A DNA stretch of 64,000 nucleotides from Nitrospirota bacterium. Its GTDB lineage: Bacteria > Nitrospirota > Nitrospiria > 2-01-FULL-66-17. Below are positions 7,942 through 28,675 of this stretch, piece by piece. The stretch covers positions 532,193-596,192 of the forward strand of contig JBMOMC010000001.1 of the NCBI GenBank assembly GCA_049325335.1. The letters are read 5' to 3'. The position numbers and the translations under genes were made by a program. Every line of letters starts with the position of its first letter. Within the stretch, counting starts at the first letter, position 1. Under the pieces are notes generated by a model, which searched no databases, had not been told where the DNA came from, and was given only the letters and a program-made list of their open reading frames with translations.

Positions 7942-7954
7942 GGAGGGAGGTCAA

Positions 7955-8746
7955 ATGACGCTGTCGCACAGCAGAGTGACGCGATACGACTTCTGCCCGC
8001 GGGCATACCGCTACTACTACCTCGAGGGATGGCGACCCGTGACGAAGAAGCCGGCGCTGCTCTTTGGCGACGCGATCGATCGCGGCCTCACCGCCCTGTT
8101 TCAACGCGGCGCCGACCCGGTGGCGGTCTTTGAGGCCGGGTGGCAGGCGCTCAAGGATGCAGACGTGGAGTGGGGCAAGCGGCACACGTGGGACGCCCTG
8201 TTGGAGATCGGGAAAGGCGCGTTGGTGCGCTTTGTGGCGGAGGAACTGCCCCGATTCTCGAACGTCGCCCCTGAGCACGTGCAGCGAAGTCTCTCCGCCG
8301 AAGTCGATGGCGTGGGCTTTGTCGGGTATCCGGATCTGTATGGCGAGGTCGATGGACTCCGCACGCTGGTGGATTTCAAGACCGCGCAGTCAGCCTACGA
8401 TGCCGAAGAAGTCCAGCTCAACGAGCAGTTGACCGCGTACTGGTGGCTCTTGGAGGCCAATGGCATCCCAGTGGATCGCGTGGCGTTCTGCGTCCTGCTC
8501 AAGCTCAAGGAACCGAAGATCGAATGGTCCTTCGCGACCAGAACGCCCCAGGACATCGCGGAGTATCGCGAGAAGCTGGCCCTTGTGGCCGGCGACATCG
8601 CCAGCAGCCGCTTTCCGAAGAAGACGTCGTCGTGCGGGTTGTGGAGTGGGTGCGACTACCGGCCGTTGTGTCTCGGGAACGAGACCGCCATTCGCACTCA
8701 CCTGGTACTGACCGAGGAGATGTCGGACGAAGAGATCGTCGTGTAG
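7955..8746 (+). CDS. PD-(D/E)XK RecB/AddB/Cas4-like nuclease with a probable Fe-S staple
   Basis: N-terminal YDFCPR; GYPD...LVDFKT; QLTAY; C-terminal CGLWSGCDYRPLC. Confidence 0.85.
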   Translation: MTLSHSRVTRYDFCPRAYRYYYLEGWRPVTKKPALLFGDAIDRGLTALFQRGADPVAVFEAGWQALKDADVEWGKRHTWDALLEIGKGALVRFVAEELPRFSNVAPEHVQRSLSAEVDGVGFVGYPDLYGEVDGLRTLVDFKTAQSAYDAEEVQLNEQLTAYWWLLEANGIPVDRVAFCVLLKLKEPKIEWSFATRTPQDIAEYREKLALVAGDIASSRFPKKTSSCGLWSGCDYRPLCLGNETAIRTHLVLTEEMSDEEIVV

Positions 8747-8759
8747 AAGGGAGGACACC

Positions 8760-9695
8760 ATGAGCACGGGACAGAACGGAAAGGCCAACACGGGGAACGG
8801 AGTCGTGACACTCGATCCGGCCGAGCAACTCCGGAAGGAGATCGAGATCAGCGACCGCGATTTCTACGCCGTGTACGACCGCCGACACGGCAAGCGGCTA
8901 ATCCCCAGCGCTCGCGTCTACAACAACTGGGCGAAGGAGGCTGGGATCAAGACGCGGATCATCGAAGCGGGGTGCGACGCGGACAAGGCCTGGGCGCACG
9001 TCAAAGGCTGGATCGGCGTGGAAGCGAATCCCGTTCTGCAGCGCGAGGCACGCGTCACCATCGTGTGGAAAACCGAATGCGAAGACCTCGTCTGGAACGC
9101 GATCGCGCCCAAGACGGATCACCGGGGCCAGGTCGTCAAAGCCGGCAAGCCCTACACGATCGGCCCCGACGGCTATCCGGTCTTGACCGAACCCAGCGAT
9201 CAGTTGGCCATCATCCAGCAGCTCTCACGGCTCAAACGCTTCGGGGAACGGACCGCGGTGACCAAGGCCGAGGCGATCGTGGAGAAGAAATTGCTGGGCG
9301 TGGAGTATCGCGAGCCCGAGGAGATCACCCACGAGCAGCAAGAGACCGAGGCCGTGGCCGCGGCCAACGGCGAGACGGTGCAGGAGGCCTCAGGATCGGT
9401 CGCCGGGCTCAGGCCGCCAGCCGGGAACGGAGCGGCTGCACCGAGTGACGATCCGCCTCATCCCCGAAGCCGGGTGCTCAATACGGTTGTCGAGATCAAC
9501 GGCAAACGTCTGCGGACGGCCGGCATCCAGGCTGATCAACTGGAGGCGATTTGGGCGATGGCTCAGCGGTTAGGGAAGGGACCCGTGGCCGAGGTGCTCA
9601 AGGCATTTGGAGCGGAGAAATCGGTACACCTCTCCCGTGAGGAGGCGGGGCAGGTGTTGGCGAAGCTCAACGGGCGACTGTCAGAAGCGATCTAA
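8760..9695 (+). CDS. Hypothetical protein, putative single-strand annealing protein
   Basis: Strong RBS; follows an exonuclease; RFGERTAVTKAEAIVEKKLLGV helix, disordered linker, small helical C-terminal domain. Confidence 0.5.
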   Translation: MSTGQNGKANTGNGVVTLDPAEQLRKEIEISDRDFYAVYDRRHGKRLIPSARVYNNWAKEAGIKTRIIEAGCDADKAWAHVKGWIGVEANPVLQREARVTIVWKTECEDLVWNAIAPKTDHRGQVVKAGKPYTIGPDGYPVLTEPSDQLAIIQQLSRLKRFGERTAVTKAEAIVEKKLLGVEYREPEEITHEQQETEAVAAANGETVQEASGSVAGLRPPAGNGAAAPSDDPPHPRSRVLNTVVEINGKRLRTAGIQADQLEAIWAMAQRLGKGPVAEVLKAFGAEKSVHLSREEAGQVLAKLNGRLSEAI

Positions 9696-9902
9696 AAACA
9701 CGCTTGGGAAGCTCCTCACTCACACGGAAAACTCGTCTTGCGGCTCTTTCGGCGGTCAACACGTCAAAACGTTTGCTCATCGGCACATACGGAGTATGGT
9801 CACTTTGCGCTTGCTAACACTCGTTAACACTCGGAACTCGTTGTGGCCCGTCGTGGGCCATTGTAAATCATTGCGAATGATGTAAAACGCCTTCCGCACG
9901 CG

Positions 9903-11642
9903 CTAACACTTGGTAACACTCGGGGCCTCTTCTCGCAGGGAATAGACCACCTTGGGCGGCTTTCCTTCCCGTCGTAGAAAGCCGCCCGAACCACTCCATT
10001 TCCGTAGCAGCCGGGAGATTTCGACTCTCGCGGTTTGGGACTCTCCAAGATGCAGCAGCACGCGGCATTGTTTGGGCGTGATCGAGCCGTGATCCTGGAG
10101 AAACACCTTGACCATCTCAGCGTAGCGCAGCGGGCTGATTCCCTTCGCTTCTGAGTATGCCGCTTTGCCTAACAAGCCGCTGGCCACTGGCTTGGCCAAA
10201 TGAAAACTCGCGGCTTTGGTTCTGCCACGCCGTTCCAGCAAGGCGGTCGGCGGCTGCGTCAGCTGGTCGAGCACGCCCCGCGCCTCGTCGCGAGACAACT
10301 GAAGAACCTGGGCGGCCCTGGCTGAATCAATAAAGGCGTGCTCCCGCAAATAAGACAGCACCAGTAAGCCGTCCAGATCAACCTCGATGCCTTCTTGCTT
10401 CCATTTCGCGACCAAAGCGGCCATCCGTGCGTCAAAACTTCCGTCGAAGACGCGCAGGGTGACGCGGGTTCCATCGGTCTCATAGACGGGTGGTCGCTTT
10501 CCGTACGACAGAGCGGGCAGAAAGATGCGCCGCCGCCCAATGCCCGCCCGCTCGACCAACCGCAACTTTTCCAACGCCTCCGCCAGCGTCCGATTACGGC
10601 TCACGGGTTCACGCCGCAGGATGTTGTCGGGTGTAATGCCGCTGATAAAACCCCCGGGACTCGTAATCACCAGCTCGCGTTGAGTGTGCCGGATCAAGAC
10701 CTCGCCCGGATCGGAGTAGTCACGGTGCGTCACGGCGTTCAACACGGCTTCTCGCACGGCCTCCAAGGGGTAGGCAGGAATCCGTATCTTGAACAAGCCG
10801 ACGGACAACTCCTGCTCAGGATTGGCCGGCCCGGCGAAGTTCTGTTCGATGCGTTCGAGGATGTTCAGGAGCCCTTGTCGGTAAGAATCGTTCCGCGCGA
10901 CTGACACATCCGAGGTCTGCAGGACATAATGGACCTGGTGCTGCGGGCAACGTTCACTAAGGACCTCCTCCCGTCCAAACAACACCAGCCCCGCATGCGT
11001 AACCCGGCCGTTTCGTACCGCGCCAAGAGCAACCAGGAACAGCTCATCTGCCAGCTTCAGCAGTTCCGATTCAGGACTGATTCGCCGTAGGATGTTCCGC
11101 GCTCTTGCGATTTCGACGGGATCAAGATCAGTCAGGCGCAAATCGGTTGGTTGCCCGCTCCAGTCCACTGCGCCCGAAGAGATCTGTACGCGAGCAAAGT
11201 TCTGCGGATCGAGCGGCATGCAGTTCTTGCCCACGCGCCGTTTGAATAATCCCTGTGCGGTGCCATAAGGGGGCAAGCCACCCTTGGGCACTCGCACGAC
11301 CAAGAGCTTGCCGGTCCCTTCCGGCACAGGCAATTCCTCCACATCGATGCGCAGGTTCGGGCGCACGCCGTCGTAGATGCCGCGCCGCCACACGTCGAGG
11401 TCGTAACCCGTCGCGCCGCGAATGGCTGCAGCCCGTCCGCGCGTCTCGTCTGCCACGCCGAAGACAATGACACCACCGTCCGCGTTCGCCAGACAGGCAG
11501 CATACTCGACGGCCACTTTCATGTCGGATTTCGGGTCGGTCCACGGCTTGAAGTCAAGCCACTGCGTTTCCAAATCATCCGCCACAGCGGTGTTCAGTTT
11601 GTCCAAGAGGGCCAGAATCTCGGCGTTGGTCGGAATGCTCAT
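9903..11642 (-). CDS. Schlafen/AlbA_2 + HATPase_c_4 + wHTH protein
   Basis: ETQWLDFK, ACLANADGGVIVFGVAD, YPLEAVREAVLNAVTHRDY, SPGG, RNRTLA, ERAGIG. Confidence 0.88.
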   Translation of the reverse strand: MSIPTNAEILALLDKLNTAVADDLETQWLDFKPWTDPKSDMKVAVEYAACLANADGGVIVFGVADETRGRAAAIRGATGYDLDVWRRGIYDGVRPNLRIDVEELPVPEGTGKLLVVRVPKGGLPPYGTAQGLFKRRVGKNCMPLDPQNFARVQISSGAVDWSGQPTDLRLTDLDPVEIARARNILRRISPESELLKLADELFLVALGAVRNGRVTHAGLVLFGREEVLSERCPQHQVHYVLQTSDVSVARNDSYRQGLLNILERIEQNFAGPANPEQELSVGLFKIRIPAYPLEAVREAVLNAVTHRDYSDPGEVLIRHTQRELVITSPGGFISGITPDNILRREPVSRNRTLAEALEKLRLVERAGIGRRRIFLPALSYGKRPPVYETDGTRVTLRVFDGSFDARMAALVAKWKQEGIEVDLDGLLVLSYLREHAFIDSARAAQVLQLSRDEARGVLDQLTQPPTALLERRGRTKAASFHLAKPVASGLLGKAAYSEAKGISPLRYAEMVKVFLQDHGSITPKQCRVLLHLGESQTARVEISRLLRKWSGSGGFLRREGKPPKVVYSLREEAPSVTKC

Positions 11643-11761
11643 AGCGTGAACCTGATGGATGTCTGCGGGGCTTTCACGCAAATCATGTCAGCTGAGCCCC
11701 GAGTAAGTATAGAGACATTGTCTGCTCATTGTGGGACCCTCCTCACTTCTTATACGGCTCG

Positions 11762-11860
11762 TTAGAAATCCCGAATGGCTTCTTCGGGATACACTTGACC
11801 CGACCGCATCCCATCGTCATCCACACCAAGCACGAGCGTGCCCCTGGCAGTCGTGCGGGG
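11762..11860 (-). pseudogene. Collapsed remnant of a second AlbA_2/HATPase_c_4 gene
   Basis: One frame reads TARGTLVLGVDDDG-MRSGQV-YPEEAIRDF-stop. Confidence 0.4.
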
Positions 11861-11908
11861 CAATAGCGCCCGTGATGAGTGGGCCGATTGATCCGAGCCC
11901 CTGGGTTT

Positions 11909-12619
11909 TCAATAATCCCAATTCTCACGCCGAACCGGAAGGCGGTTAAGCACGTCGCGATAGAACTGCCACTTGGGCATAAATCGGTCCATGAGCGCAA
12001 CAAATCGGGCGTTGTGTGTCGGCTCCAGCAAGTGAACCAACTCGTGAACAACGATGTATTCGACGCACTCTCGTGGCTTCTTCGCCAGCTCGGTGTTGAG
12101 GCGGATCGTGCGTGCTCTGTGGTTACAACTCCCCCATTTGGTTTTCATCCGCTGCACAAAAAACCGCTCCACCTTTGCGCCCGTCAGACGTTCCCACTTG
12201 GCAATCAAGGGCGGCACCGCTTGCTTGAGTTGCTGGCGATACCATTCCTCGACGATGGCCTCCCTCTTCTGTTCGTCTGCTCCAGGTCGAACCCGTAGGA
12301 GCATCCGGCTGTGTCGTAGTTCGACGGACGGTACCTGGTCGCTCTCGCAAACCGTGAGCAGGTAGCGCTTCCCCCACACATAATGGCTTTCCCGGTCCAA
12401 ATATTCGCGCGGAGTTTCGCGTTCCTGTTCCCGGAGCTTTCGCTGTTGTCGTTTGATCCAGTCGAGCTTTGAAATGGCAAAGACCCGGATCGTGTCGAGG
12501 CTCATGCGCAGCGGCGCCGAAATCCGTACTCTGCCGGTTGGCGGATACACGCTGAGATGAACGTTCTTGATGTTCTTCAGCACCACGTCCACCGCAATAT
12601 CACCCAATTCGACCTGCAT
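11909..12619 (-). CDS. YgjP/DUF45 (M48-like) metallopeptidase associated with type I RM
   Basis: MKTKWGSC, YIVVHELVHL, HNARF. Confidence 0.9.
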   Translation of the reverse strand: MQVELGDIAVDVVLKNIKNVHLSVYPPTGRVRISAPLRMSLDTIRVFAISKLDWIKRQQRKLREQERETPREYLDRESHYVWGKRYLLTVCESDQVPSVELRHSRMLLRVRPGADEQKREAIVEEWYRQQLKQAVPPLIAKWERLTGAKVERFFVQRMKTKWGSCNHRARTIRLNTELAKKPRECVEYIVVHELVHLLEPTHNARFVALMDRFMPKWQFYRDVLNRLPVRRENWDY

Positions 12620-12624
12620 AATCG

Positions 12625-15600
12625 TCAGTATTCTATTTGTGCTTTGATAATGAGGAAGATGCGCTCCACCTCGCCCACGTCCTGCAACACGTCATACAGG
12701 GCTTTCTTGACCATTTGCTCTCGTGCCTGGACGCCGCGCCACCCATCCGGTCGCTTCGTCTTCACGGCTTCGTCGATCTTCAATGCGATTACTTCATTCT
12801 GGCCAAGGTTGTTGTATAGGGCGCGTTTGCCCGGTGTGTCCAACGCCGCTGGCGTGTCCTCGGCTTGCCCCGCTTCCACCTTTTTCGCCAATTCGGCGAT
12901 CCGCTTCAGGTACTCTTCATACTCGATCGCCCGTGCCTTGCGGTCGGCGATGATCTCGTCCAGCAGAGTAGACATCTTCTCATAGTAAGCCGGGTCGTTC
13001 AGGTGCTCTTTGATGATTTTGCTGCGGACATTGTTCTCAATCGTTTCGGCCACCGCATTCTTGTTGCCTTTTAATCCACCGAGCTGCGTGGCAATGGCAT
13101 TGGCAATCCCGGTCTTCACAATGAGGTCCACCAGGCTCATGTTGTCGAAGGGAGAGATCTTCCTCGGCTCATCGGCTTCGATATACGTGTCGATGAGGTG
13201 CCGCATGTCCGCCTCATACGCCTTCAGGTCGAGGCTCTCCCCGCTCGCCTTGCGGATGATCTCGCGGACGTTGAGATAATGGGTGAGGTGTTGCTTGATG
13301 CGTCCCACGTCGCCGACGCTGTATCCGGCGGGTTCCAATTCATCCGCGATGTTGGCGTAGGCCCTAACCAGGGCCACGGTCGCTTTGTAGAGCGCAGCGC
13401 GTTGCGGCTCATGTTCCTGCAGGTCCTCCGGAATCTCCGTATTGCCGCAGAAGTAGTGGATATGTTCCAACTCGCCCTGCGGCGACTCAACCGGCTCGCA
13501 CAACAAGGCGAGAGCTTCGAGCGCGTTGTCGAGGCGTTCCTTCCCCTTCTTCAGGCGGTCCTGCAGCAGCACCTCTGGGTCCGCTCCACCTGCGCTGTGA
13601 TCCAGCTCGGAGGTGTACACCGCGATCGCATTCTCGACCTTCTTGAACAGGTCTTTGTAGTCCACGATGTAGCCGAAGTCCTTGTCCTCACCGTCCAGCC
13701 GGTTGACGCGGCAAATGGCCTGAAACAGACCGTGGTCCTGCATGGACTTGTCAATATAGAGATACGTGCAAGGCGGCGCATCGAAGCCGGTCAGCAGCTT
13801 GTCCACCACAACTAACAGCGCCATGTTCGCCGGCTCTTTGGTGAAGAGCGTCTTCGCCCACTCCTCGTAGGTCTCCGTCTTCGTCATCCCCGGCTTGGGG
13901 TCGACGTCCTTCAGCAGCTCGGTGTAGGTGTTGTAGATAAACTGCTTGTCGGTTTCGGTGTTCGCGCCGATCTCCTCCCTTGTCACGTCCTGCGCCTGGG
14001 GGTTGTAGGAGGTCACCACCGCGCACTTCCCTCTGAACGGCGTCTTTTGGAACAGCGTGAAATACTTGCACGCTTCGTAAATGCTGGAGGCCACCAAGAT
14101 CGCATTCCCGCGCTCGCTGGACAGGCGCGGCTTCACGCTGAAGTCGAATACGATGTCGCTCACCACTCGCTCCATCCGTGAGCGGGAGCTGAGTACGCTC
14201 TGCATCGTGCCCCACTGTTTCTTCAACTCGTCCTTCTGCCACTCGTTCAGCCCCTTGGTCTTGGCCTCGAACCACGCATCGATCCTGTTCTCCGAGCCCA
14301 GGCGCTGGTCAATATCGCGCGCCTCATAAACCAAATCGAGCACCACTCCGTCTTCAACGCCCTCGCTGAACTTGTAAGTGTGGATGTAACCGCCAAACAC
14401 TTCGAGGCTCGTCGCCTTATCTTTTTTCAGGAGCGGCGTTCCCGTGAAACCAATGAACACTGCGTTGGGCATGAGCGCCTTCATCACACGGTGCAGCTTG
14501 CCGCTCTGCGTGCGATGACACTCGTCCACGAACACGAACACCTCGCCCACCGTGGGGCTGGGTTGGGCTTCCAGCTCCTTGATGAACGCGTCAAAGTCGT
14601 CCACGCCCTTCTGGCCGAACTTGTGGACCAGTGAACACAGCAGGCGCGGCTTGGCCTGGCCGAGTTGGCCCATTAGGTCGCGGCCACTGCTCGTTCGCTT
14701 GATCGCCTCACCCGATTCGTTGAAGACGCGCTCGATCTGCTTGTCCAACTCATCGCGGTCGGTGATGATAGCAACGCGAGCGTTGGGGTTGTTCTCCAGA
14801 ATCCACTTGGCCAGGAGTACCATGACAATGCTCTTGCCGCTGCCCTGCGTGTGCCACATGATGCCGCCCTTCTTCTGGCGGACATGTTCCTGTGCGGCCT
14901 TGATGCCGAAATATTGGTGCGCACGCGGCAGCTTCTTCACCCCGCCGTCAAACAATACGAAGTCATGTATCAGCTCGATCAGCCGGTCTTTGCGGCACAT
15001 CTTGAGCAGGTACTTGTCGAGTTTGAAGCGGGTGTTGTCCGCTTCGTCCTCTTTCCACTTCAGGAAATATTTCTCCGGTGTCCCGATGGCGCCGTATTGC
15101 AGTCCTTCTGAATCGTTTCCGGCGAACACAATTTGAACGGTAGAGAAGAACCATTCGTTGAACTCAGGCTGCTGGTTGGAGAGCAGTTGGCGAATGCCGT
15201 CCCCGATAGAGATGCGGCTGTTCTTCAACTCCAACACAGCGATGGCAATGCCATTGACGTACAGCACAATATCCGGCCGCCGCTCATGGTTCCCTCTGAG
15301 CGTCACCTCCTCGGAAATGGCAAAGTCGTTCTTCAGCGGTTCCTGCCAGTTGATGACGTGGACGGTCTCGGTGACCTTGCCCGCCTCGACCTTTACAGGA
15401 ACGCCGTAACGTAACAGGCTATAAGTGGCTTGGTTGTTACCGTAGAGGGTGCGGCTGTGATTATCGGCTTCAGTACGCAGCTTGTAGAGGGCCGCGCTGA
15501 TCTGCGGCGGCGTGTAGCCGCTCTTCTTGAGCCATTCGGTGAGCAGCCTTTCTTCGATGTTGCTGTTGCTGTCGCGGTCGGTCCGGTCGCCGAGGTAGCG

Positions 15601-15675
15601 GTAGCCCAGCTCGTCGCGGAACAAAGCAATGACGCGCTCTTGCGTCGCGCGTTCGGGTTGGCCGACGCCGTTCAT
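12625..15675 (-). CDS. hsdR: Type I restriction subunit R
   Basis: RPDIVLYVNGI..ELK, WHTQGSGKS, DECHR, GFTGTP, LLTGFDAP, QAICRVNR. Confidence 0.97.
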   Translation of the reverse strand: MNGVGQPERATQERVIALFRDELGYRYLGDRTDRDSNSNIEERLLTEWLKKSGYTPPQISAALYKLRTEADNHSRTLYGNNQATYSLLRYGVPVKVEAGKVTETVHVINWQEPLKNDFAISEEVTLRGNHERRPDIVLYVNGIAIAVLELKNSRISIGDGIRQLLSNQQPEFNEWFFSTVQIVFAGNDSEGLQYGAIGTPEKYFLKWKEDEADNTRFKLDKYLLKMCRKDRLIELIHDFVLFDGGVKKLPRAHQYFGIKAAQEHVRQKKGGIMWHTQGSGKSIVMVLLAKWILENNPNARVAIITDRDELDKQIERVFNESGEAIKRTSSGRDLMGQLGQAKPRLLCSLVHKFGQKGVDDFDAFIKELEAQPSPTVGEVFVFVDECHRTQSGKLHRVMKALMPNAVFIGFTGTPLLKKDKATSLEVFGGYIHTYKFSEGVEDGVVLDLVYEARDIDQRLGSENRIDAWFEAKTKGLNEWQKDELKKQWGTMQSVLSSRSRMERVVSDIVFDFSVKPRLSSERGNAILVASSIYEACKYFTLFQKTPFRGKCAVVTSYNPQAQDVTREEIGANTETDKQFIYNTYTELLKDVDPKPGMTKTETYEEWAKTLFTKEPANMALLVVVDKLLTGFDAPPCTYLYIDKSMQDHGLFQAICRVNRLDGEDKDFGYIVDYKDLFKKVENAIAVYTSELDHSAGGADPEVLLQDRLKKGKERLDNALEALALLCEPVESPQGELEHIHYFCGNTEIPEDLQEHEPQRAALYKATVALVRAYANIADELEPAGYSVGDVGRIKQHLTHYLNVREIIRKASGESLDLKAYEADMRHLIDTYIEADEPRKISPFDNMSLVDLIVKTGIANAIATQLGGLKGNKNAVAETIENNVRSKIIKEHLNDPAYYEKMSTLLDEIIADRKARAIEYEEYLKRIAELAKKVEAGQAEDTPAALDTPGKRALYNNLGQNEVIALKIDEAVKTKRPDGWRGVQAREQMVKKALYDVLQDVGEVERIFLIIKAQIEY

Positions 15676-17579
15676 CAGTCACGCCCTTCGGAAGCGAACA
15701 GCTGCCTGCATGATCTGATTGCTCGGCTGATCTTGTCCTCAGAAAAGATTGCGCGATCCAGCTTGGCCTCCCATTCGGGATGGTCTTGGATGACCTGCTT
15801 CACCGTGGCCACATCCACCACCTTCCCCTCGCGGCGAAGATCCTCCATGGCCATATCCACGGTCGTTAGCAATTCCAGCTCGTCATTAGACTTGCAGCGA
15901 AACTGCTCCAACCAGGTCAAGACGTCATCGCCATACCACTTGGAGAAATAACTTTGTGCCTCGCCAATCTTTTCACCAGCAACAAATCCAGAGAATTTGT
16001 CACGGGAATGCACGCTGACGTAGCCATTATTGAGTGCAATTCCTTCAGGCCCTTTGTATCTGGTTGCCGGGTTGTAAGGTCCTGCGGCCTTCTTGAGATA
16101 GCCTTCAGGCTGTATTTCCACATGGCGATGGAGCAGGTACGAGAGTTTGGTATAACGCTTCCGGCCCAACGGCCATTGTCTCGAGCCGAAGTTCTTGGCC
16201 AGAACGGAAATGACCACGGCCTCGTTGATCTGCCAGTTGTGCGACGTAGTGGGGGCTGACGTGGACTTCTTCCTTACCGGCAGGTGGACAACTTCCGAGG
16301 CCGGTCGAACTAAGCGAATCCTCCCGGTGAGCAACTCCTGCATCATGCCCTGCTTGAGCTGACCGGATTTTGCTAGTTTGGCTTCCAACGCAGCGATGTC
16401 AGCGTCCATGTCGAAAAGGATGTTGGCGATGGCAATTTGCTCTTCAATGGTCGCTGGCGTTCTGTAAACGAAATTGACGAAATCCTTCTGATAAAGGTGA
16501 TTGATTGTCGACCCGGCACTGAGCTGAACAAGAAACTCGGTGAAGACGTTAGAACAAAGGAGGTAATAGAAGAACTCGGGATGAAAGGCCTCTGCGATCG
16601 GCCGGATCACGAAGACCCCACTATTAAGCGTAGCTGGTTTAGGCAGGTCGGTGATCAACGCGACCTTGCCGATGGTGCCGTCCTTTGTCACGAGAACATC
16701 GTGCTCTTTCAACTGGATGTTCTTGTCCTGCTTGTAGCGAGACTCATCGACGTAGTGGCAATTGTTCCAGTCGATATAGCCCTCTTTGAATTCAGTGCCT
16801 GTCACGAGGTAGTAGTCCCCGGAGTCCAGGTATTCAGCAGTCGTTAAGCCCTGCCATCCAATGCGCGCTTTGAGAATAGCCGTAGTCCCCAACCGCTTCC
16901 GCTCCCACTCCCCGCTAAACCCCGGTAGACGCTTCTTGCCGGTAAGCAATTCCTGCATGGCGCCTTGTTTGAGGTGGCGTTTTTTTGCGAGGAGTTGCTC
17001 CAGGGATTCGACGAGGGCATCCGCATCGCTCAACGCCTCGGCAATGGCTTCTTGTTCTGCTTTGGTAGGCGGGAGTGCAAGACGGACTTGCTTTACTGTC
17101 GTCAAATTCATTCCGGCTTTGGCACCAGAGTCAGTGAGCGCTCGAAAAATCTTTTGCGGCTTCTCGGATGCCAAGAAGTAACTGACGAATTTGGGGTTGG
17201 TAATTGAGGGATCGAATCGCACTAACGCGATGTGTTGATTGATGTAGGCAGGCCTTGGAACTTGTGCGGAGACGTAACTAACAATTCCAATATCGGCGGT
17301 GATTGAAATCAGGACATCGCCGGGTTGAAGCTGTGTGCGTGCACCCTCGCTGTTGTCAGCGGGAAGGCTGACAAAACGAAGATCATTCAGGTCCAAGTGA
17401 ATTGAGCCACGGGTAAGGTTGGTAATACGAATGAATGGTGAACCGTGATCGGCATAGAAACCTGCCCAGCCACGCGAGCCACTGGTAACAAAGGGGTGCA
17501 AATCACCAATCGGCTTGGCTTCCCAATCCTCCGGAATCACGCCCACATCGGTCTGCTTATAGCCGGGTCTCACTTCCAC
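15675..17579 (-). CDS. hsdS: Type I specificity subunit S with an extra ~210-aa C-terminal domain
   Basis: GVIPEDW; two TRDs; two EQ.AIA...KQG.MQELLTG repeats; frame continues past LLTGRIRLV. Confidence 0.95.
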   Translation of the reverse strand: MEVRPGYKQTDVGVIPEDWEAKPIGDLHPFVTSGSRGWAGFYADHGSPFIRITNLTRGSIHLDLNDLRFVSLPADNSEGARTQLQPGDVLISITADIGIVSYVSAQVPRPAYINQHIALVRFDPSITNPKFVSYFLASEKPQKIFRALTDSGAKAGMNLTTVKQVRLALPPTKAEQEAIAEALSDADALVESLEQLLAKKRHLKQGAMQELLTGKKRLPGFSGEWERKRLGTTAILKARIGWQGLTTAEYLDSGDYYLVTGTEFKEGYIDWNNCHYVDESRYKQDKNIQLKEHDVLVTKDGTIGKVALITDLPKPATLNSGVFVIRPIAEAFHPEFFYYLLCSNVFTEFLVQLSAGSTINHLYQKDFVNFVYRTPATIEEQIAIANILFDMDADIAALEAKLAKSGQLKQGMMQELLTGRIRLVRPASEVVHLPVRKKSTSAPTTSHNWQINEAVVISVLAKNFGSRQWPLGRKRYTKLSYLLHRHVEIQPEGYLKKAAGPYNPATRYKGPEGIALNNGYVSVHSRDKFSGFVAGEKIGEAQSYFSKWYGDDVLTWLEQFRCKSNDELELLTTVDMAMEDLRREGKVVDVATVKQVIQDHPEWEAKLDRAIFSEDKISRAIRSCRQLFASEGRD

Positions 17580-20041
17580 GCGAACCCCATCCGTTTCAGG
17601 TGGCGGTTCACTTTGGTTTCCAGGTCAGCCACACGAGTGACCATCTGCGGCAGCGGGGTTTCGTAGCGTTCGGCCAGCTCCTTCACGCGCTTGGTGAGTG
17701 CCTGGCTGATGCGGTCCATCTCGCCGTGGATCGCGGCGTCGAGCGCTGCGAGCCACTTGTCGTCGACCACCAGCGTCTTGATCTCAGACTCAGTGAGCTT
17801 CAGGTATTTCGCGTAGGCCTTGGCGTCGAGCGCGGCCTCGGCATCTTTGAGGCGCTTCTTGATGTCGGCCTCCTGGGCGCTGAGAGTCAGCCACATAAGG
17901 AGGATTTCCGCGTCTGAGGTAGCTCCATTGCCGTACGGTCCGGGAGCTTCTGCCGCCATCGGCAACTTCTCAGTCGTGGACGTGCTGTGGGAGTTTTCGT
18001 CTTCTTCCTGAAGGTCTTTCAACCGAGCGGCGACATTGGCTCTATTCACCTTGTCCAGTTCTGAAAATGCGCTTTCTTCGCCGCCATGCTCTTCTTCCAG
18101 CTCGGTCATGCGAGCGGTGACGCTCTCCAGCTCGGCGGCGAGGTTATCGATCGCTTCCTGCTCCTTGGCAAAGTAGTGGGCGACGATGAGGGCCTTCGGC
18201 ACAAGGTCACACGTCCAGCCTTTGTCCTTCTCCTTGCCCTTCTTGTCTTTCTCGATGATGCGGTAGGCCTCGGCCTTCCAGCCGTCGGTGGCGATGAGGT
18301 AGCAATCGTCTTGCATGGTGTCCGCCCAGTAGTCCATGACGTGCTGGTAGACATCGTATTTGTCGATGAGTGGTTTGTCCGTGTAGTGGGCGAGCAGGTC
18401 TTCGGACGATGCGGTCATGACTTCCTTCGGATGGCAGCCGGCTTTCAACTGCCGCAATGTCTTGGCGCTCTTCTGCCGCCAGACTTCGAAATGCGCGTTC
18501 ATGCTCGCAATGAAAGCCGCGAACTCGGGGTGCTCGTAGATCGTGGACTTGATCGCTGCCTTGTCCACGGCGAGGTCGACGTAACCAGGGCGGTTTGCCT
18601 TGAACAAGACATGACGGAGCTGCGGGCAGACGGCCCAATAACGATCGAGAGCATCGACATCTGTAACAGGGATGCCGCCCTTCAAGTGGCCTTCGATGTC
18701 CTGGAGATCCTCGGGCTCGGTGCTGTCGATGTAGCGCGGAAGGTTCAGGTTGAACTCGTTTTTCTCGATTTCCTCAACGGAGACCATACGGGAGTATTTG
18801 GGGCCTTCGAGTCGCTTATTGAAGACATCGACGATTTTATGGATGTCCTGTGCGCGCAGACGGTTCTTGGGGCCGTCCTTCATGAAACCGCGGCTCGCGT
18901 CGATCATGAAGATGCCCTTGCGGGCGTGAGCGTTTTGCTTGTCGATGACGACAACGCAGGCTGGGATACCGGTGCCGTAAAAGAGATTGGCGGGCAGGCC
19001 GATGATGCCGGTGATGTACCCCTTGCGCACCAAATTGCGGCGAATGTCGGCCTCGACATTGCCGCGGAACAGCACGCCGTGGGGCAGGATGCACGCGCCT
19101 TTGCCGGTGGATCTCAGCGAGCGAACAATGTGCAGCAGATAGGCGTAGTCACCCTGCTTGTTGGGCGGCACGCCGAAGTGCTTGAAGCGCTCATAGGGGT
19201 CGTCCAGCGGATGGAGGCCGGTGCTCCAACGCTTGTCGGAAAACGGCGGATTAGCCACGACGTAGTCGAATGTCTTGAGCGTGTCGCCGTCTTTGAACTT
19301 TGGATCGGCCAATGTGTTGCCTTGGACGATCAGCGCGGTGGGATTGTTGTGCAGGATCATGTTCATGCGGGCAAGACCGCTGGTGGCCGCGTCCTTTTCC
19401 TGGCCATACAGCGTCACCGGCGTGCGCGCCTCATCGGCGACTTTGAGCAACAACGAGCCGGAGCCGCAGGTAGGGTCGTAGACCGTGGTATCAGGACTCG
19501 TCTTGGCTTCGCGGATGCCGAGGATTTGCGCGATGATGCGGCTGACTTCGGCGGGCGTGTAGAACTGGCCCTTGCTCTTGCCACTTTCCGTGGCGAAGTG
19601 CCGCATGAGGTATTCGTAGGCATCGCCCAAGATGTCATCGCCTTCCGCACGGTTCTTGGAGAAGTCGAGTGCGGGGTTTTCGAAGATGGCGATGAGATTA
19701 GTGAGCCGATCGACCTTTTCCTTCCCATCGCCGAGCTTGGCCGAGTCATTGAAGTCGGGGAAATCGGACAGCTTATTGGCGTTGGCCAGCGGCCCGATGA
19801 TCTTCTTGTTGATCTGATCACCGATGTCCGACTTGCCCTTCAAGGCGACCATGTCCTTGAAGCTGGCCCCCTTGGGAATCGTGATCGGGGCGTACGGAAC
19901 GCCAGCGTATTTGTCACTGATGTACTTGATGAACAGCAGGACGAGGACGTAGTCCTTGTACTGGCTGGCGTCCATGCCGCCACGCAGCTCGTCGCAGCTT
20001 GCCCAAAGCGAGCCGTAAAGTTCGGATTTCTTAATCGCCAT
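17570..20041 (-). CDS. hsdM: Type I methyltransferase subunit M
   Basis: LWASCDELRG, GQFYTP, YDPTCGSG, NPPF, PHGVLFRG. Confidence 0.97.
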   Translation of the reverse strand: MAIKKSELYGSLWASCDELRGGMDASQYKDYVLVLLFIKYISDKYAGVPYAPITIPKGASFKDMVALKGKSDIGDQINKKIIGPLANANKLSDFPDFNDSAKLGDGKEKVDRLTNLIAIFENPALDFSKNRAEGDDILGDAYEYLMRHFATESGKSKGQFYTPAEVSRIIAQILGIREAKTSPDTTVYDPTCGSGSLLLKVADEARTPVTLYGQEKDAATSGLARMNMILHNNPTALIVQGNTLADPKFKDGDTLKTFDYVVANPPFSDKRWSTGLHPLDDPYERFKHFGVPPNKQGDYAYLLHIVRSLRSTGKGACILPHGVLFRGNVEADIRRNLVRKGYITGIIGLPANLFYGTGIPACVVVIDKQNAHARKGIFMIDASRGFMKDGPKNRLRAQDIHKIVDVFNKRLEGPKYSRMVSVEEIEKNEFNLNLPRYIDSTEPEDLQDIEGHLKGGIPVTDVDALDRYWAVCPQLRHVLFKANRPGYVDLAVDKAAIKSTIYEHPEFAAFIASMNAHFEVWRQKSAKTLRQLKAGCHPKEVMTASSEDLLAHYTDKPLIDKYDVYQHVMDYWADTMQDDCYLIATDGWKAEAYRIIEKDKKGKEKDKGWTCDLVPKALIVAHYFAKEQEAIDNLAAELESVTARMTELEEEHGGEESAFSELDKVNRANVAARLKDLQEEDENSHSTSTTEKLPMAAEAPGPYGNGATSDAEILLMWLTLSAQEADIKKRLKDAEAALDAKAYAKYLKLTESEIKTLVVDDKWLAALDAAIHGEMDRISQALTKRVKELAERYETPLPQMVTRVADLETKVNRHLKRMGFAWK

Positions 20042-20091
20042 CGACTACTCGCCTCACCTGCGGTGTCTCCAAACCTAGGACCGTGCGCTGT

Positions 20092-21018
20092 TCAGCCGCG
20101 GAATACCGCGTCCCCGTGCCATTCAAGGAACTCTCGATTGGGAAGATCGACTGCACGCGGCGGCACCCATATCTGCTGGCCATTCAGCTTGTAGTAGTGT
20201 TCGCCGTTGTCGAAATCCCTTTTGAGTCGGTGACTGACGAGGAACTTATATTCCGGCGTGACCGTGACATACCCTCGGTCAAAGAGGGTATGCACGTCTG
20301 AGCGAAGCAAGAGGCCATTTCCGACCTCATGCCTTCCGCTGTTCGCCACCGGTTTGATGTGCGCGGCCTCCAGCACTGGCAGCGCTTTTTCCCGCGTTAC
20401 CGCGCAGCGGCGCTGGTAGATATCCGTGACGAGGATCCGGAAACTTCCCTGACCCAACCGCGGGCGAACGAGAATGGGCTCGCCATACACCGGCCGCTCG
20501 CCCTCAGCAACGTAAAGGGCCTTACCACTTGTCGCGGACAGCACTGCCTCGATACGCGCCCAGAGTTCCTTGCCTGAGCCCTGACGCACGTCGTACGTTT
20601 TACCCTGCACGATATTCTTTGCAAAGTCGCTCGGCACTGGGATCCAGTCACGTTCGCCCAGAAAGAACGGCTGTTCCAAGATGATGCAGCCGACCTTGTA
20701 GTCCTCGTGCGGGTCTGGTTTGGTCCGGCGGAACTTCTCAATCCCCTTTCGCATCTGCTCCAGCGTAGCGGCCCCATTCTTCTCGCCGAAAGCATCCCAG
20801 GCGAGACTCGAGGGCAGGATTGACGAGTGGGCAAAGAAACCGCCCCCAACGATGAAGTGTTCCGGGTAGTGGAGCTTGAAGAGGAACGGCTCGCCCGGTT
20901 GAAGGGCGCTGAAGGCACGGTTTCCGCCCGGCTGCCAGAAGTTGACTTCGTCCAGGCCCGGACGCGCGCTCAGAAACCGAAACCAGTCCCCGTCGGTTAC
21001 CGCCACATACGCCTTCAT
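20092..21018 (-). CDS. HNH endonuclease with an N-terminal accessory domain (putative restriction nuclease)
   Basis: RLGQGSFR..YQRRCAVT..LEAAHIKP..NGLLLRSDVHTLFDRG. Confidence 0.88.
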   Translation of the reverse strand: MKAYVAVTDGDWFRFLSARPGLDEVNFWQPGGNRAFSALQPGEPFLFKLHYPEHFIVGGGFFAHSSILPSSLAWDAFGEKNGAATLEQMRKGIEKFRRTKPDPHEDYKVGCIILEQPFFLGERDWIPVPSDFAKNIVQGKTYDVRQGSGKELWARIEAVLSATSGKALYVAEGERPVYGEPILVRPRLGQGSFRILVTDIYQRRCAVTREKALPVLEAAHIKPVANSGRHEVGNGLLLRSDVHTLFDRGYVTVTPEYKFLVSHRLKRDFDNGEHYYKLNGQQIWVPPRAVDLPNREFLEWHGDAVFRG

Positions 21019-21197
21019 CGCATTCCCGGAAACAGAGGGTAAGGCCAGATCTCGCTTCGACGCGTCGGCGTCGTCCCGTGCGTTCCCCTATCTTTGCCGA
21101 ACACTATTGCACGTCAGGAACCGTGTGTTTCTCTTCGTAATCAGGTCTAGAATAGTCCCCGTCACTGCGGACGACGACCAGCACTGGTGATCACCCG

Positions 21198-21497
21198 TTA
21201 TCCCGCCCGACGGACTTTCATGGCCACGTCGATCCGTGAGCCAAGCCGGTTAATGATCCCCATGAGGCGATCCACGGTGAACCGCCCAAGATCGGCGTTG
21301 CGAATGCGCGAAAAGTCCGCCGCGGCAATGCCGGTGCGGGCGTGCGCTTTCCGCACGCTTAATTTCTCGCGATCAAGCATTTTGATGATCTCGGCGGCAA
21401 GGAGCGCCTTGAAATGCTCGCTATCCGCGTTCTTCTTTTTGAGATCGCGGTAGACATTGCCGCTTCCGCGGATGATCTTCAACTCGTCCTTTTTCAT
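21198..21497 (-). CDS. XRE-family HTH antitoxin (HigA-like)
   Basis: GSGNVYRDL, LAAEII, AADFSRIRNADLGRFTVDRL. Confidence 0.85.
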   Translation of the reverse strand: MKKDELKIIRGSGNVYRDLKKKNADSEHFKALLAAEIIKMLDREKLSVRKAHARTGIAAADFSRIRNADLGRFTVDRLMGIINRLGSRIDVAMKVRRAG

Positions 21498-21575
21498 CGC
21501 AACTTTTTCCTCAATCGTTTCAGACTCCTTCCGAGCTCTCCGAGTCCACGAAATCGGCCCGGTCGGCGGCGTCAT
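21494..21575 (-). pseudogene. Internally deleted Gp49/RelE-like toxin
   Basis: N-terminus MTPPTGPISWTRRARKE joined out of frame to C-terminus LKRLRKKLR-stop, with an ATGA overlap on the antitoxin. Confidence 0.6.
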
Positions 21576-21786
21576 GTGCTTGTTATTTTGGTAGTGTCGT
21601 CATGTGTGACAACGGATGTCAAGCCCCTCCCATCCACTCCCGTCAACAGGCTCCTCCCAGATGACGTGATGATATGTCAAAATCCTTACACTCAATCTAA
21701 GTAATTTGCATGAAGGGGATCATCGCACCGACCCGAATTGATTCCGGGCGAATGGAGCGTACACTGTTCGCCTGAGTGGACAACAG

Positions 21787-22179
21787 ATGACTAATTCGGC
21801 GACAGCATTCCATTTTGCTCCATCACGTTCGCTCCTTCGCCGCCGCGCGGGGAGGCTCGCCGTGGCCTTTGGTCTCCTGATCGCCGCTGTGTGGGTGGTC
21901 GGCGGGGTGTTCCATCAGGACCTCCTCGCCGGCTTGCTTGTGATCACGGCGATCGGCGTGGGCGGGTTCCTTCTCGCGACGGTCACCCAACTGCTGATAG
22001 GCAAGGTGCCGACCGCAGAATCTCGGGCACCCGGCTTCGACTGGGACGAAGAGAGAGACAGAAATCCGTTTATCCCGGGAACGAAGGCATACTGGAATTA
22101 CGGCCAGGAACTCCTCGATCGCGACCGCGACGATCAGCGTTCGACGCGCTCCAGCGCCTTCAAACGCGATTCCGGATAG
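21787..22179 (+). CDS. Small hypothetical membrane protein (2 TM)
   Basis: Two hydrophobic stretches followed by a charged tail. Confidence 0.5.
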   Translation: MTNSATAFHFAPSRSLLRRRAGRLAVAFGLLIAAVWVVGGVFHQDLLAGLLVITAIGVGGFLLATVTQLLIGKVPTAESRAPGFDWDEERDRNPFIPGTKAYWNYGQELLDRDRDDQRSTRSSAFKRDSG

Positions 22180-22699
22180 AAGTTCAGGATGCGGAGCCGT
22201 TTCCTGAAACAACTCCTCCGGCTCGAGAACGCGCTCATAGATCGGTCGCTGCTCAGATCCGCGACGTATTGTTCAAACAACCAATCCAACTCGCGGTGTT
22301 CAGTCCCCGGCCCAATCCCCATCCCACGCTCCAAGCCGAAGTATTAACGGGTCACGTCCGACAGGGTGTCGCATGCCACCCCACTCTGCACGTGTGGGCC
22401 GGGCGTCCTGCAGAGGATGGCCGTTCCGATCGACCGAAGGAGCGGATCATGGTCCGGCGCGACACCAGAACGATCGATCCATCGCGGTCGCGCGGGCGAG
22501 ACACCTCTTCGCGCAGGACTATCAGCAATCGACCATTCCCGGCAAAGGGTGGCGACGTTTCTGGCGCGCGATGCCGGGCTCGTCTCGCGGATGAGGCGGA
22601 TGGATGAGGCCGAGCGGGCGCAGGCTTCCCCGTTGCTCGGGTGAAAGTCAAGGAGTCAAGCTTGACCAGGTACCGTTCCCCAACTATTCCTGCGCGATA

Positions 22700-25600
22700 T
22701 TAGAGAACGAGTAGCGACACGTCGAACGCATTGGGACCTCTCATAGTAAATCCGATCTTAAAGCTTACGCGCGTTCCCCTGGTAAGCATCTTCCAGGCAC
22801 TCTCGTCGATATTATTGCAGTGGGCATATATCCAGTCATTCAGACCATCACGAGCTATAAAGCAATAAGTTGCCTCTAAGCGCGCAACCTGACCTGTAAA
22901 TGACTGGTCCATTGGATATAAGAGTTTATCTCTAACGTCTGGGTTAATTCGAGCATTGCCAAGCCGACGAAAAACCTCTTTGCTTTCGTCAACCTCCCCA
23001 TTAAGGAACAGCTGCCTCCCATACAGTAACTGGGCGTCGTAATTGTTGTCTCCGTCGGTAAATGATCTCCGCAGATGATAGACGAGGACCTCATGGGCTG
23101 CTCCACCTTTAGCAATCAGAAGTCTGGCATAGGCATAGTGCAGTCGGCGCTCCCCTGGATTCGCCTCGAGCGCCTTTGTGAGTATCTGTTCAGAGCGTTG
23201 GAAGTCGTTATGCTGTTTATAGTAATTTGCTAATCGCAGTGCTATGAACGTGCTGCGTGGATTTCCGTCGAAAGCCTTCTCCAGCGCCTGAAGAACTCGA
23301 CCGGCGTCGTCGAGGATCTTTGCGAGTTGCGCTTCCGCATCAAGCAAATATGGATGAGTAGGAAAGAGTTGGAGTCCTTCCGATAAATTCCGCTCAGTAT
23401 CTTTCACTAGAGCCTCAGCGGCCGTCTCAGATATAGCCTCGCCAGGCTGCTCTATGAGATCCTTAAGTCTCATTAAACCGATCTTGACCAAAGTATGATG
23501 GACGTAGCCTTCACCGCTCCCTAGTGGTGTCAGGGATTGGACGATTGATGTCGCTTCCGAAAGCAGCTTTTCGCGCTCAAGCGGTGTTCTTGCCGTGTCC
23601 GCCAACCGCAAGCGAAGTTCTGCCATCGAATGCTTTACGGCTACAGCCAGGTCTGGATACGCTGACTGCAACGCCTTGCTCAACGATTCACTAGCTGCTT
23701 GAAGATTGCCATTGGGTCTGTGCATCTCATATAACGCCTTCTGGTGTGACAGGTATGGGTCGTCGCCAGCGATGCGTTTTGCCACCTCTAACACACCTTT
23801 GGCGAGCTCATGATTTGGAAAGAGTTCAATGAGGAGTCGCCCCCTTACCATTTGGCGATATGCCGATCTGTCTGCTGAATAATCTATGTTTAACGCCCCC
23901 AGAGATTTGATATAAGCGTCGTATCGTTCTTCCTGGAGGCGAAGCATTCGGTTAAAGACGATCTGAGCAATGAGGGGATGTCTTGCTCGGTATGTGTAAT
24001 CACGAATGATAGGGTCTTTGTCCACCTGCACCACATGCTCGAGGGGCCCGAACAGACGCGCCCTGAATTCATCAAAAGGGACATCATGAATTCGGGACAC
24101 GATGCCGGCACGAACACGAACGTTCAGACGATTCAGTGTACAGATCGTTAGATAAATTTGTTGTGCTTCAAGAGGCAGGATGCTTCTGTATTCGTCTTCG
24201 ATAATATCTTCGAATGGCTTTCCCAACGTTGCCTCGTGAAGCGCTACTAAGAGCTGACGGCCCGCACGTTCGGATAACGCTAATCGTCGACTGTTTAGGT
24301 CTAGATGGGTAAGAGTGCCAAGGGCGTTGTGGCGCTCGAGTAGAGACAGAAGAGAGTCGATTTCCTTTACCGAAAGATAACGGAGTTCGTGGACGGTACT
24401 AATCAACGGCGCAAGTGCCGCGCAGGAAACGTTCCACTCATTAGTCCGCTCAGCAAGTATGACTGTAAGGTGCTTTCCCTCAGGGCCAATAGTCTTGGAT
24501 AGAGATTGAATCTCGCGAGCACGATCAGCCGCGTTATCAACAAACAGGTAGATGCGCTCTTTACAAAGAGATATTAGTTCCTGAAGCGCTTGAGCGTTAA
24601 TAACACCATATGGTCTCAAGTAAAGACAGAGGCAATCGTAGTCGTGCGTTGCATCCCAGGCGATCCGTCGAAGCAATACCGACTTTCCTGCCCCAGCATG
24701 AGCTTTGATTAAGATTAGTTCTAGTCCCTGACGATGTTCGGCCTCATTAATCAAGAAGTGATCTGAAAGGAGGGTATCTGCTAAGTGACGGCGAACATCG
24801 AGCTGCTGCTCAATTGCGGACCAACCAAGATTGACTCCCTTATAAAAGTCGCTCGGAGTGACCGTCTCGGTAGACGTAACACTCTTTACGTACTCCACAT
24901 CTGTTTGGAGGAATTGTTCACAGGGTTTACTTAGAACAAAATCTCGCGTTTTGAATCGTTCGAATATGGGAAGCGCGGTATCCCGTACCAGGACAGCCAA
25001 CCCCCGAAACTCAGCCGGGATGGTAGAATCAAGCGCCTGAAGAAACTCCTCGAAAGTGCCCTGCAATGGAGAAATCCTTTTCGCCTCCCAAAATCGTCTC
25101 TGTACATCGTCGACCCGTGGAACCACCGCGTAGTACCTCGGTCGCCTTTCCCCTAGTTGGGTCATTTCCAGCAGAATTGCGCGAAGGTCTGGGTCCTGCA
25201 AGCTGTGACCGATAAACACCAGAGGAAGCTCATACGCCCACTCCCTCAGGTGACTGAAAATACGGCTCCGGCCTTTTAAATATTCAATATATTGGTCAGT
25301 TGTAAGGATGAGAGGGCATTCCGGATTGGCGGTTCTAGTAATACAGCCGTGCAGTTTTAGTAGCATCACACTTCTAGGATCCCGAAGGTGTTCTTCCACC
25401 CGGTCGCCGTTTTCTATGAACGGCTTCGGAACCTGAACGGCAGCGGGTGTTGTTTCGTATGCTTGTTCTATAAGGCGATCATAGTTTGTAGTGGCAAGGC
25501 CCCGCCAGGTAAACGTACACATCAATTGGTGTGCTGGTGTGGGCTTGAAAACCTCGAAAAGTTTACGAATATATTCCTGGACTGTGACGAGGTCGGTCTC

Positions 25601-25807: not shown

Positions 25808-26100
25808 ATGACGAGACTCGCTAGGGGGAAGGTCTGTAGTCTGTCGACTACGTCAGTGGCCCATTAAAGAGGCACCGTGGGTGAATCAGCGTTTGATGAA
25901 ACCAGAGCTTAGGTGTCGAGTCTTGAGGAACGGTACGTCCGCCGTGGGAAACCGTGCAACCTCGGCAGCGATCGACTTCCGGGACCGTAGCACAATATCC
26001 GGCCGATGCGCAAGTCGGGGGCTTCATGATCAGAAAATCAAGAGGGGCAGTTGGAGTTGCTCCCCGCCCCTCTTGAAATTCGTCGTCTCTTTCATATTGA

Positions 26101-26290
26101 TTACCCCAGCGCGTTCAGTGCCAACCCTGACTTCTCACCCGATCTGTTGCGCCGTCATGCTGTGATGGCCCGGATCTTCTCGTCCTGGCCATTGGCCTTG
26201 TGGATCGTCACCTCCACCGGCTTGCCAGACGCCAACGTCCAGAGGCCGCTGATGCTCTTCCCGGAGCAAAGCATAGCGTCGGACGCAAAC
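26101..26290 (-). pseudogene. Degenerate 3' end of aconitate hydratase
   Basis: Across frameshifts: YALLREE / ISGLWTLASGKPVEVTIHKANG / HSMTAQQIG / KSGLALNALG-stop. Confidence 0.6.
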
Positions 26291-26364
26291 TGGGATTCCA
26301 TTCCAATCTCCCCGTTGGGTCCGGCTCCACGACTGGACAACCGTTCCCCTGGGTCTCGAATGCG

Positions 26365-27564: not shown

Positions 27565-27791
27565 CTGCCGGGAGCTACCAATACGCTCGAAAGGAAACGA
27601 ACTGGGGCCGAATTTTACAACATTTCGTAGCTGGTTGGACCGAATTGACCAATCAGGACGATCGACCTACTGACACCGGGTTGAAGCATTAAAGAATGGC
27701 TTTGGACACGGTGTCATTCACCATTCCAATCTGCACGCGTGGGTCTGGCGTTCATCATCGGCCGCTTGTATCGATCGCGGCCGCGTCCTCG

Positions 27792-28622: not shown

Positions 28623-28646
28623 GGTGGTCTCCTGTTCCCACTGTTT

Positions 28647-28675
28647 ACTGTACGGCAATGTGCCGTACATGTCAA
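28647..28675 (-). promoter_or_regulatory. TA promoter with palindromic operator
   Basis: TTGACA-17 nt-TACAGT overlapped by TGTACGGCA-atg-TGCCGTACA (28649-28669). Confidence 0.8.

Follow-up and report, generated by a model that had tools for sequence, protein, structure and literature searches.

A DarG C-terminal-like domain fused to the HsdS specificity subunit of a Nitrospirota bacterium's type I restriction-modification system

HsdS, the specificity subunit of restriction-modification (RM) systems of type I, is usually treated as two variable DNA readers only. In the 64,000-nucleotide stretch of a Nitrospirota genome analysed here (assembly GCA_049325335.1, contig JBMOMC010000001.1, positions 532,193 to 596,192; hereafter, the window), an hsdS gene on the reverse strand runs on past these readers into a long C-terminal tail, which raises the questions of what the added domain is, where it came from, and what it does for the restriction complex. 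We describe it as a widespread, selected and optional third domain of HsdS, probably taken from a toxin-antitoxin system, and tentatively read it as an accessory module that grips DNA.

The extension of HsdS

The gene and its parts, all on the reverse strand and in window coordinates, are:

15675..17579, reverse strand: hsdS fusion gene, 634 amino acids (aa), with target recognition domains (TRDs) and conserved regions (CRs) in the order TRD1-CR1-TRD2-CR2, a linker and a DarG-C-like domain (full-length model with a predicted local distance difference test score, pLDDT, of 92 and a predicted template modelling score, pTM, of 0.71)
16308..17579, reverse strand: type I specificity core, residues 1-424, ending in LLTGRIRLV (PF01420 twice; PADLOC Specificity_I, E 2e-103)
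16242..16307, reverse strand: linker, residues 425-446, with VVHLP (pLDDT below 50 at residues 430-445)
15687..16241, reverse strand: DarG C-terminal-like domain, residues 447-631, with a basic winged-helix lobe and an acidic helical lobe (from the model and profile matches)

The open reading frame (ORF; 17579-15675) has zero internal stops, and residues 2-423 are covered by the two PF01420 domains and the Specificity_I profile, so that the core is that of an ordinary HsdS. The protein runs on for 210 aa beyond LLTGRIRLV (residues 416-424; 16308-16334), and the three motifs read there by the initial annotation, an earlier inspection of the same DNA, are all present: LGRKRYTKLSYLL at residues 471-483 (16131-16169), YLKKAAGPY at residues 494-502 (16074-16100), and LELLTTVDMA at residues 568-577 (15849-15878). 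The annotated length of about 210 aa holds for the extension as a whole, while the folded domain is shorter (about 185 aa, residues 447-631), the rest being linker. The modest pTM despite the high pLDDT is as expected when parts of a protein fold separately, and the tail is predicted to be flexibly tethered to HsdS.

In tail-less relatives, the ORF ends a median of 1 residue past the equivalent of LLTGRIRLV. One Logan contig covers the whole hsdS gene with zero differences, though that run could be where the window itself comes from. Chance read-through or an assembly artefact is ruled out as the origin of the tail because 730 of 1410 candidate proteins of 348-1110 aa match it, and 120 of the 120 listed carry PF01420.

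Homology of the tail to the DarG C-terminal domain

An AlphaFold model of the tail domain (pLDDT 90) matches chain 7YK3_B, the C-terminal domain of Mycobacterium tuberculosis DarG, with a Foldseek probability of 1.0 and TM-scores of 0.55/0.60. In a VIA comparison against 48,161 chains, the same structure aligned over 165 residues (Z 13.2, rmsd 3.6) and the next match reached only Z 5.8, the remaining neighbours being mostly PadR-type and other winged helices (Z 5-5.8). Helical folds with a VIA Z below about 13 can arise by chance, and sequence evidence therefore matters for the assignment. A profile of 73 tails aligned with a profile of 13 DarGs over 148 columns (hhalign 96.5%, E 7.6e-10), a reciprocal hidden Markov model (HMM) of the DarG C-terminal domain recovered the tails (best E 3e-9), and the PADLOC DarG profile matches the tail with its C-terminal half (E 1.1e-5). 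The tail domain is a homolog of the DarG C-terminal domain, and this part of the initial annotation is borne out.

The second family named in that annotation, Panacea, applies at the level of the superfamily and not as a family match, and Panacea is a more distant relative of the tail than DarG-C. The last 210 aa of HsdS gave zero Pfam matches at E 0.1, PF13274 (Panacea) included, and zero NCBIfam matches. No Panacea-titled solved structure was among the Foldseek and VIA matches listed, as judged by entry titles; solved structures searched by sequence with the tail and the tail profile gave nothing meaningful; and a viral fold library gave no match at E <0.001, with three partial matches at TM ~0.4. 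In the Atlas, the nearest Pfam-labelled cluster was SocA_Panacea, a label on 13% of its members (score 0.81), which serves as a lead only. Stand-alone proteins found with the DarG profile match PF13274 weakly (E 8e-4 and 2e-5) and so bridge both families.

With the DarG2 C-terminal domain (7YK3) the tail shares its fold and the motifs K-L-x-Y, Y-x-K-x-x-x-G-P-Y, LELL-x-TV and W-x-x-[KR]. It differs in having no cognate DarT, in a basic rather than acidic wing with a basic helix-turn-helix (HTH) lobe and an acidic C-lobe, and in being fused to a DNA-specificity subunit instead of a macrodomain; a Pfam scan found no macrodomain (PF01661) in the HsdS protein. With Panacea/SocA it shares K-L-x-Y and the G-P motif, as well as the habit of a promiscuous, often appended domain, as described in PMC8832971 and PMC10440598. 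It differs from Panacea in an extra C-terminal lobe, in the lack of a partner toxin gene, and in the residue after the invariant G-P, which is Y in the tail and V in Panacea (GPV).

Spread and selection of the fusion

A profile search for the tail returned 764 clusters at 50% identity, 150 of them listed; this profile took in the last HsdS helix besides the tail. When 185,579 species genomes were scanned for an exact pattern, 149 relatives were recovered, from which 80 tail-bearing loci were kept. These are labelled as 20 phyla plus one unnamed, the two archaeal labels being metagenome bins. Cultured environmental strains with a tail-bearing system include Rhodanobacter terrae (L009), Dyella marensis (L020) and Terracidiphilus gabretensis (L015). 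Plasmid and phage collections yielded no tail match, and IMG/VR yielded 2 loci. On one IMG/VR contig (L232, 4333-11467), a full hsdM-hsdS-tail-hsdR operon lies right after phage head genes.

Across homologs chosen by their tail, the tail is a median of 68% identical and the TRDs 18-19%, with the HsdS conserved regions at 64-70%. The median dN/dS of the tail is 0.12 over 49 of 56 close pairs, the other 7 being left out for saturated dS, and its median pairwise identity (54%) is like that of the HsdR N-terminus (53%) and above that of the YgjP-like peptidase encoded in the same operon (48%). The HsdS-DarG-C fusion is therefore a real family under purifying selection. Among the papers that our full-text searches listed, none describes it in its title or the opening of its abstract, though supplementary domain tables of Panacea papers could list such fusions, and as far as our literature searches reach it is an undescribed variant of type I RM.

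An optional domain with several hosts

Of 105 control loci gathered on HsdM similarity alone, 62 show both the end of hsdS and the start of hsdR, and the tail occurs in 1 of these 62 systems of the same RM subfamily. On an HsdM tree (FastTree, 118 rows), its distribution requires 24 changes (starred branches force 12 of these), as against 39.7 when shuffled. The HsdMs closest to that of the window belong to systems without a tail, and near-identical HsdMs occur with and without one (L101 versus L102 and L009). The tail is optional, and has been repeatedly gained or lost.

It is also carried by more than one type of protein. When the HsdS end preceding the linker was classed in 304 proteins, 292 were of the LLTG type, 6 PRLM, 4 VVTG and 2 REAF; another 36 long proteins escaped the HsdS-end patterns, and by eye most of these are variants of LLTG. 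In a quick tail tree of 74 rows (45 random LLTG tails plus the window), whose root is unsure, the minor HsdS types nest among LLTG tails. Among 256 longer candidates, one, a 1618-aa DrmMI/IIG-like methylase (P0383), ends in the tail domain (residues 1427-1618, E 1e-15). A PADLOC methylase profile (MTase_I, PDLC03039) also matches the tail, at its C-terminus (E 8e-6), an unconfirmed hint that fusions with HsdM exist; when 201 genomes were searched, 2 members turned up, and in both the match was confined to the N-terminal 500 positions.

In six proteins the tail domain is joined to a helical N-terminal domain instead of HsdS, and in one, which may be a chimera, to a MutS N-terminus. In other loci, the helical domain is flanked by a sigma-like gene on one side and an M78-UvrD gene on the other, and there it precedes a C-terminal half that we take to be regulator-like and that the tail has apparently replaced. 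An Atlas search with the non-HsdS N-terminal domain gave unnamed clusters only. Four such three-gene loci (L237-L240) encode a sigma-like protein, a second protein that carries the helical domain of P0304 (with DUF2442 at its N-terminus in 3 of the 4) and a fusion of an M78 peptidase with a UvrD helicase. At three other loci (L217, L218 and L220), a gene for an HD-domain phosphohydrolase is immediately followed by a stand-alone DarG-C/Panacea-like gene, and these are candidate toxin-antitoxin pairs.

Absence of DarT and a likely origin from a darTG cassette

DarG-C is reported to bind the toxin DarT (PMC7003065), and does so by mimicking acidic single-stranded DNA, as cited in PMC11481870. A custom DarT HMM, which detected both of two positive controls as well as one tail-less control locus, found DarT in 0 of the 80 tail-bearing loci and nowhere in this 99%-complete genome; the negative rests on this model because Pfam searches for DarT in this genome and five others had no positive control. 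Elsewhere in the genome, DarT occurs in 1 of 10 other tail-bearing genomes, beside its own DarG. DarT was accordingly rejected as a linked partner of the tail.

Related RM systems nevertheless carry darTG at the position that the tail occupies. A darTG pair between hsdS and hsdR is described in PMC12255303 and PMC5179494, and the RRDM island of enteropathogenic Escherichia coli, reported as anti-phage, has the order RptR-HsdM-HsdS-DarT2-DarG2-HsdR-M48 (PMC12255303). The E. coli sequence CP061270.1 shows hsdM-hsdS-darT-darG-hsdR-M48, with HsdM, HsdR and M48 proteins 55%, 49% and 43% identical to those of the window, and one control locus (L147) has an RRDM-like layout with darTG at the hsdS-hsdR junction. 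At this control locus (L147:8356-9957), darT and darG read as a single 534-aa ORF, either a true fusion or an assembly error. The window resembles RRDM in its hsdM-hsdS-(insert)-hsdR-M48 order, in its related RM subfamily, in encoding a DarG-C fold between hsdS and hsdR, and in the M48 gene after hsdR. It differs in having no darT, macrodomain or RptR match, and in that its DarG-C-like domain is fused to HsdS and ~13-22% identical to DarG-C. RptR itself was seen in none of 55 loci with the tail and in 3 of 46 without it, which says little about a replacement of RptR.

Because the tail occupies the darTG position between hsdS and hsdR, it was likely captured from an RRDM-like cassette at this insertion hotspot. 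Loss of darT and the macrodomain from hsdS-darT-darG-hsdR would join DarG-C to HsdS, and recombination could then have spread the fused unit along with hsdS and the 3' end of hsdM. Two findings speak against this descent: the tail is so distant from DarG-C, and the hsd-embedded DarG of E. coli scores no better than other DarGs. Given that low identity, the argument for descent from an hsd-embedded darG is one of position; with an hsd-embedded DarG that is not the closest tested, the fusion event would also have to be old. Capture of a stand-alone or regulator-borne copy of DarG-C is a possible alternative origin.

A putative DNA-binding role

The charge of the tail is reversed relative to DarG. 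By segment sums, its median charge is +6 in the HTH segment (DarG, +2), +2 in the wing (DarG, -3) and -4 in the C-lobe (DarG, +2), and residues R473, R475, K478, R485, K496, K497 and K/R507, all within the first 61 residues of the domain, are basic residues in 93-100% of the 73 sequences compared. Almost always, the domain comes after a DNA-target-recognition protein, namely four types of HsdS C-terminal end and one DrmMI/IIG-like methylase. Because of this reversal of charge, the tether to DNA-target-recognition proteins and the winged-helix neighbours of the fold, we favour, with a probability of about 0.4, a reading in which the tail, as a toxin-less accessory module, holds on to DNA next to the recognition site, and perhaps to acidic DNA mimics as well. 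The tethered domain would contact DNA through its basic winged-helix face, which would strengthen or tune target engagement by the methylase or endonuclease, and the same basic surface would also catch Ocr/ArdA-like mimics. Among the roles that the initial annotation considered, its fallback, an extra DNA-binding winged HTH, agrees best with the data.

Several points weigh against DNA binding. The net charge of the whole domain is only about +3 as a sequence sum, and Pfam matches no HTH in the regulator-like halves whose place the tail apparently takes. Protein binding is what the literature describes for both DarG-C and Panacea (PMC7003065, PMC8832971), and Ernits et al. (PMC10440598) argue that Panacea is more likely a sensor, regarding autoregulation as improbable.

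If the tail does block DNA-mimic inhibitors, it would add a new layer to the conflict between restriction and anti-restriction; if it only adds DNA affinity, it would be a modest but new kind of HsdS. The fusion also offers a toxin-free setting for asking what the DarG-C/Panacea fold senses, a question posed for DarTG activation and for multidomain PanA antitoxins in PMC11481870 and PMC10440598. This question is directly testable, since near-isogenic pairs (L101, L102 and L009) and RRDM, a validated anti-phage island of the same layout, exist.

Alternative roles

A possible, if somewhat unlikely, alternative is that the tail acts in trans as a sensor or decoy, binding a phage protein (an anti-restriction factor, or a DarT-like or other DNA-modifying enzyme) and thereby shielding or switching the complex. 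Protein binding is the known function of the fold according to PMC7003065, PMC11481870 and PMC10440598, and a flexible tether combined with strong conservation in the absence of a linked partner would suit a partner encoded elsewhere. No such partner was identified, however; the single DarT among the other tail-bearing genomes comes with its own DarG, the acidic wing of DarG is not kept, and purifying selection suits a fixed ligand better than an arms race.

Rather more doubtful is a broader version of the mimic-catching idea, whereby an antitoxin domain freed of its toxin would have been fused again several times to methyltransferase machines (the four HsdS types and the DrmMI-like enzyme) as a built-in counter-counter-defence against DNA mimics, either keeping the enzyme working or switching on the M48 protease.

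The initial annotation had itself favoured a guard, in which the tail as an antitoxin keeps an M48/YgjP, AlbA/Schlafen or HNH neighbour inactive until anti-restriction proteins disturb the complex. The window has the gene run HNH-hsdM-hsdS-hsdR-ygjP/M48-AlbA_2/HATPase_c_4, whose other members are:

20092..21018, reverse strand: HNH endonuclease gene upstream of hsdM, variable cargo
17570..20041, reverse strand: hsdM, 823 aa, long-C-terminus subfamily, with DPTCGSG and NPPF motifs intact
12625..15675, reverse strand: hsdR, 1016 aa, with intact nuclease, Walker A and DECH motifs; its start and the stop of hsdS overlap
11909..12619, reverse strand: YgjP-like/M48 metallopeptidase gene, with HELVH (PF01863)
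9903..11681, reverse strand: gene for an AlbA_2 (Schlafen-like) and HATPase_c_4 protein, variable cargo without a tie to the tail

HsdMs of this subfamily have a C-terminal extension of ~370 aa (17570-18694, reverse strand) that gives no significant Pfam match.

A guard draws on the antitoxin fold of the tail (Z 13.2; hhalign 96.5%) and on the precedent of PrrC as given in PMC12707154, where a type I RM operon holds extra genes at an internal hotspot. Among 81 loci, HsdR was found in 78, HsdM in 72, YgjP in 66 (most of the misses being at contig ends) and the AlbA cluster in 18, with every other cluster in fewer than 8; the HExxH motif of YgjP/M48 is invariant in 49 sequences. Yet YgjP, which follows hsdR, is also present in 42 of the 42 tail-less controls (drawn from L082-L186) with room to see the gene, and at fixed HsdM its divergence does not track the tail (partial r -0.08). 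Whether or not a tail is present, the M48/YgjP gene acts like a fourth core member of this RM subfamily. AlbA lies inside the operon in 14 of 59 tail-bearing and 4 of 44 tail-less loci (p 0.07, loci not independent), an excess that is the sole result leaning to a guard, and three quarters of tail-bearing operons (45 of 59) have no AlbA inside. For the HNH gene of the window, no relative was found in 80 tail-bearing loci.

The junction itself behaves alike in both groups. A gap of more than 400 nucleotides separates hsdS from hsdR in 47 of the 79 loci that have a tail and in 41 of the 61 that do not, and an inserted ORF of at least 100 aa is absent from 23 of 69 tail-bearing loci with M, S and R genes (2 loci, in which the ORF picker missed hsdS, were left out of this count). 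The inserts vary, with Fic, YhcG, GmrSD, Shedu, McrBC, AbiEii, KilA-N and others represented, largely the same families as in tail-less controls; inside the operon, Fic occurs 6 versus 5 times and GmrSD 5 versus 5 times in tail-bearing and tail-less systems, respectively. The neighbourhood survey thus returned no effector that co-occurs specifically with the tail and no gene confined to tail-bearing systems, and in contrast to PrrC/EcoprrI, no conserved effector accompanies the add-on, which is here part of HsdS itself. YgjP, being independent of the tail, and AlbA, being mostly missing, were rejected as dedicated effectors, and a guard of any of the three neighbours is unlikely.

Proteolytic control, the other fallback of the initial annotation, is a slimmer prospect still: the linker and tail would recruit ClpXP in the manner of SocA, or be cut by the M48 protein, turning the complex over for restriction alleviation. 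SocA is described as a ClpXP adaptor in PMC8832971, and other Panacea antitoxins in the same paper act without ClpXP or Lon. The linker motif [KNRE][VI][VIT]x[LFI] occurs in 81 of the 292 linkers of type A and in 4 of the 6 of type C, where shuffling gives means of 3.6 and 0.3, and VVHLP is the window's own version of the recurring V-V-x-L. V-V-x-L may resemble ClpX-docking tails. About 72% of type A linkers nevertheless have no strict motif, and the relatives are not independent.

We give as little credence to a structural add-on that docks on the long HsdM C-terminal extension and stabilises or regulates the methylase. Over 48 loci, tail divergence does track HsdM residues 450-600 (rho 0.65; partial r 0.50, with 0 of 499 permutations as high), while the HsdR motor gives rho 0.02. 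This co-divergence can be explained by linkage, because the 3' end of hsdM, hsdS and the tail share one side of the recombination hotspot. The near-identical HsdMs with and without a tail argue against a dedicated contact, as does the presence of the tail on other HsdS types and on the DrmMI-like enzyme.

Finally, a functionless relic of a darTG deletion, carried passively, would suit an optional domain at an insertion hotspot but was rejected as highly improbable, being largely refuted by the selection signal, by an identity that matches HsdR and exceeds YgjP, and by a fusion whose reading frame is kept in loci of 20 phyla and which has also passed to other HsdS types.

The carrier island

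The RM system of the window is carried by a mobile element:

2695..29058, no strand: 26-kb integrative element at tRNA-Met, with 47-nucleotide direct repeats at 2695-2741 and 29012-29058 and a dip in GC content

An integrase-like ORF (3840-2722) in the element was named from its sequence and not by a family scan. The element also holds RadC, UvrD, a PD-(D/E)XK nuclease and HTH_37, as well as a GNAT gene (28316-27792) that resembles the toxin of a toxin-antitoxin system. A 1035-aa protein encoded on the reverse strand of the same island (22700-25807) combines SIR2-like, nSTAND5 NTPase, TPR and cold-shock domains and looks like a defence protein of the Avs/Dsr type.

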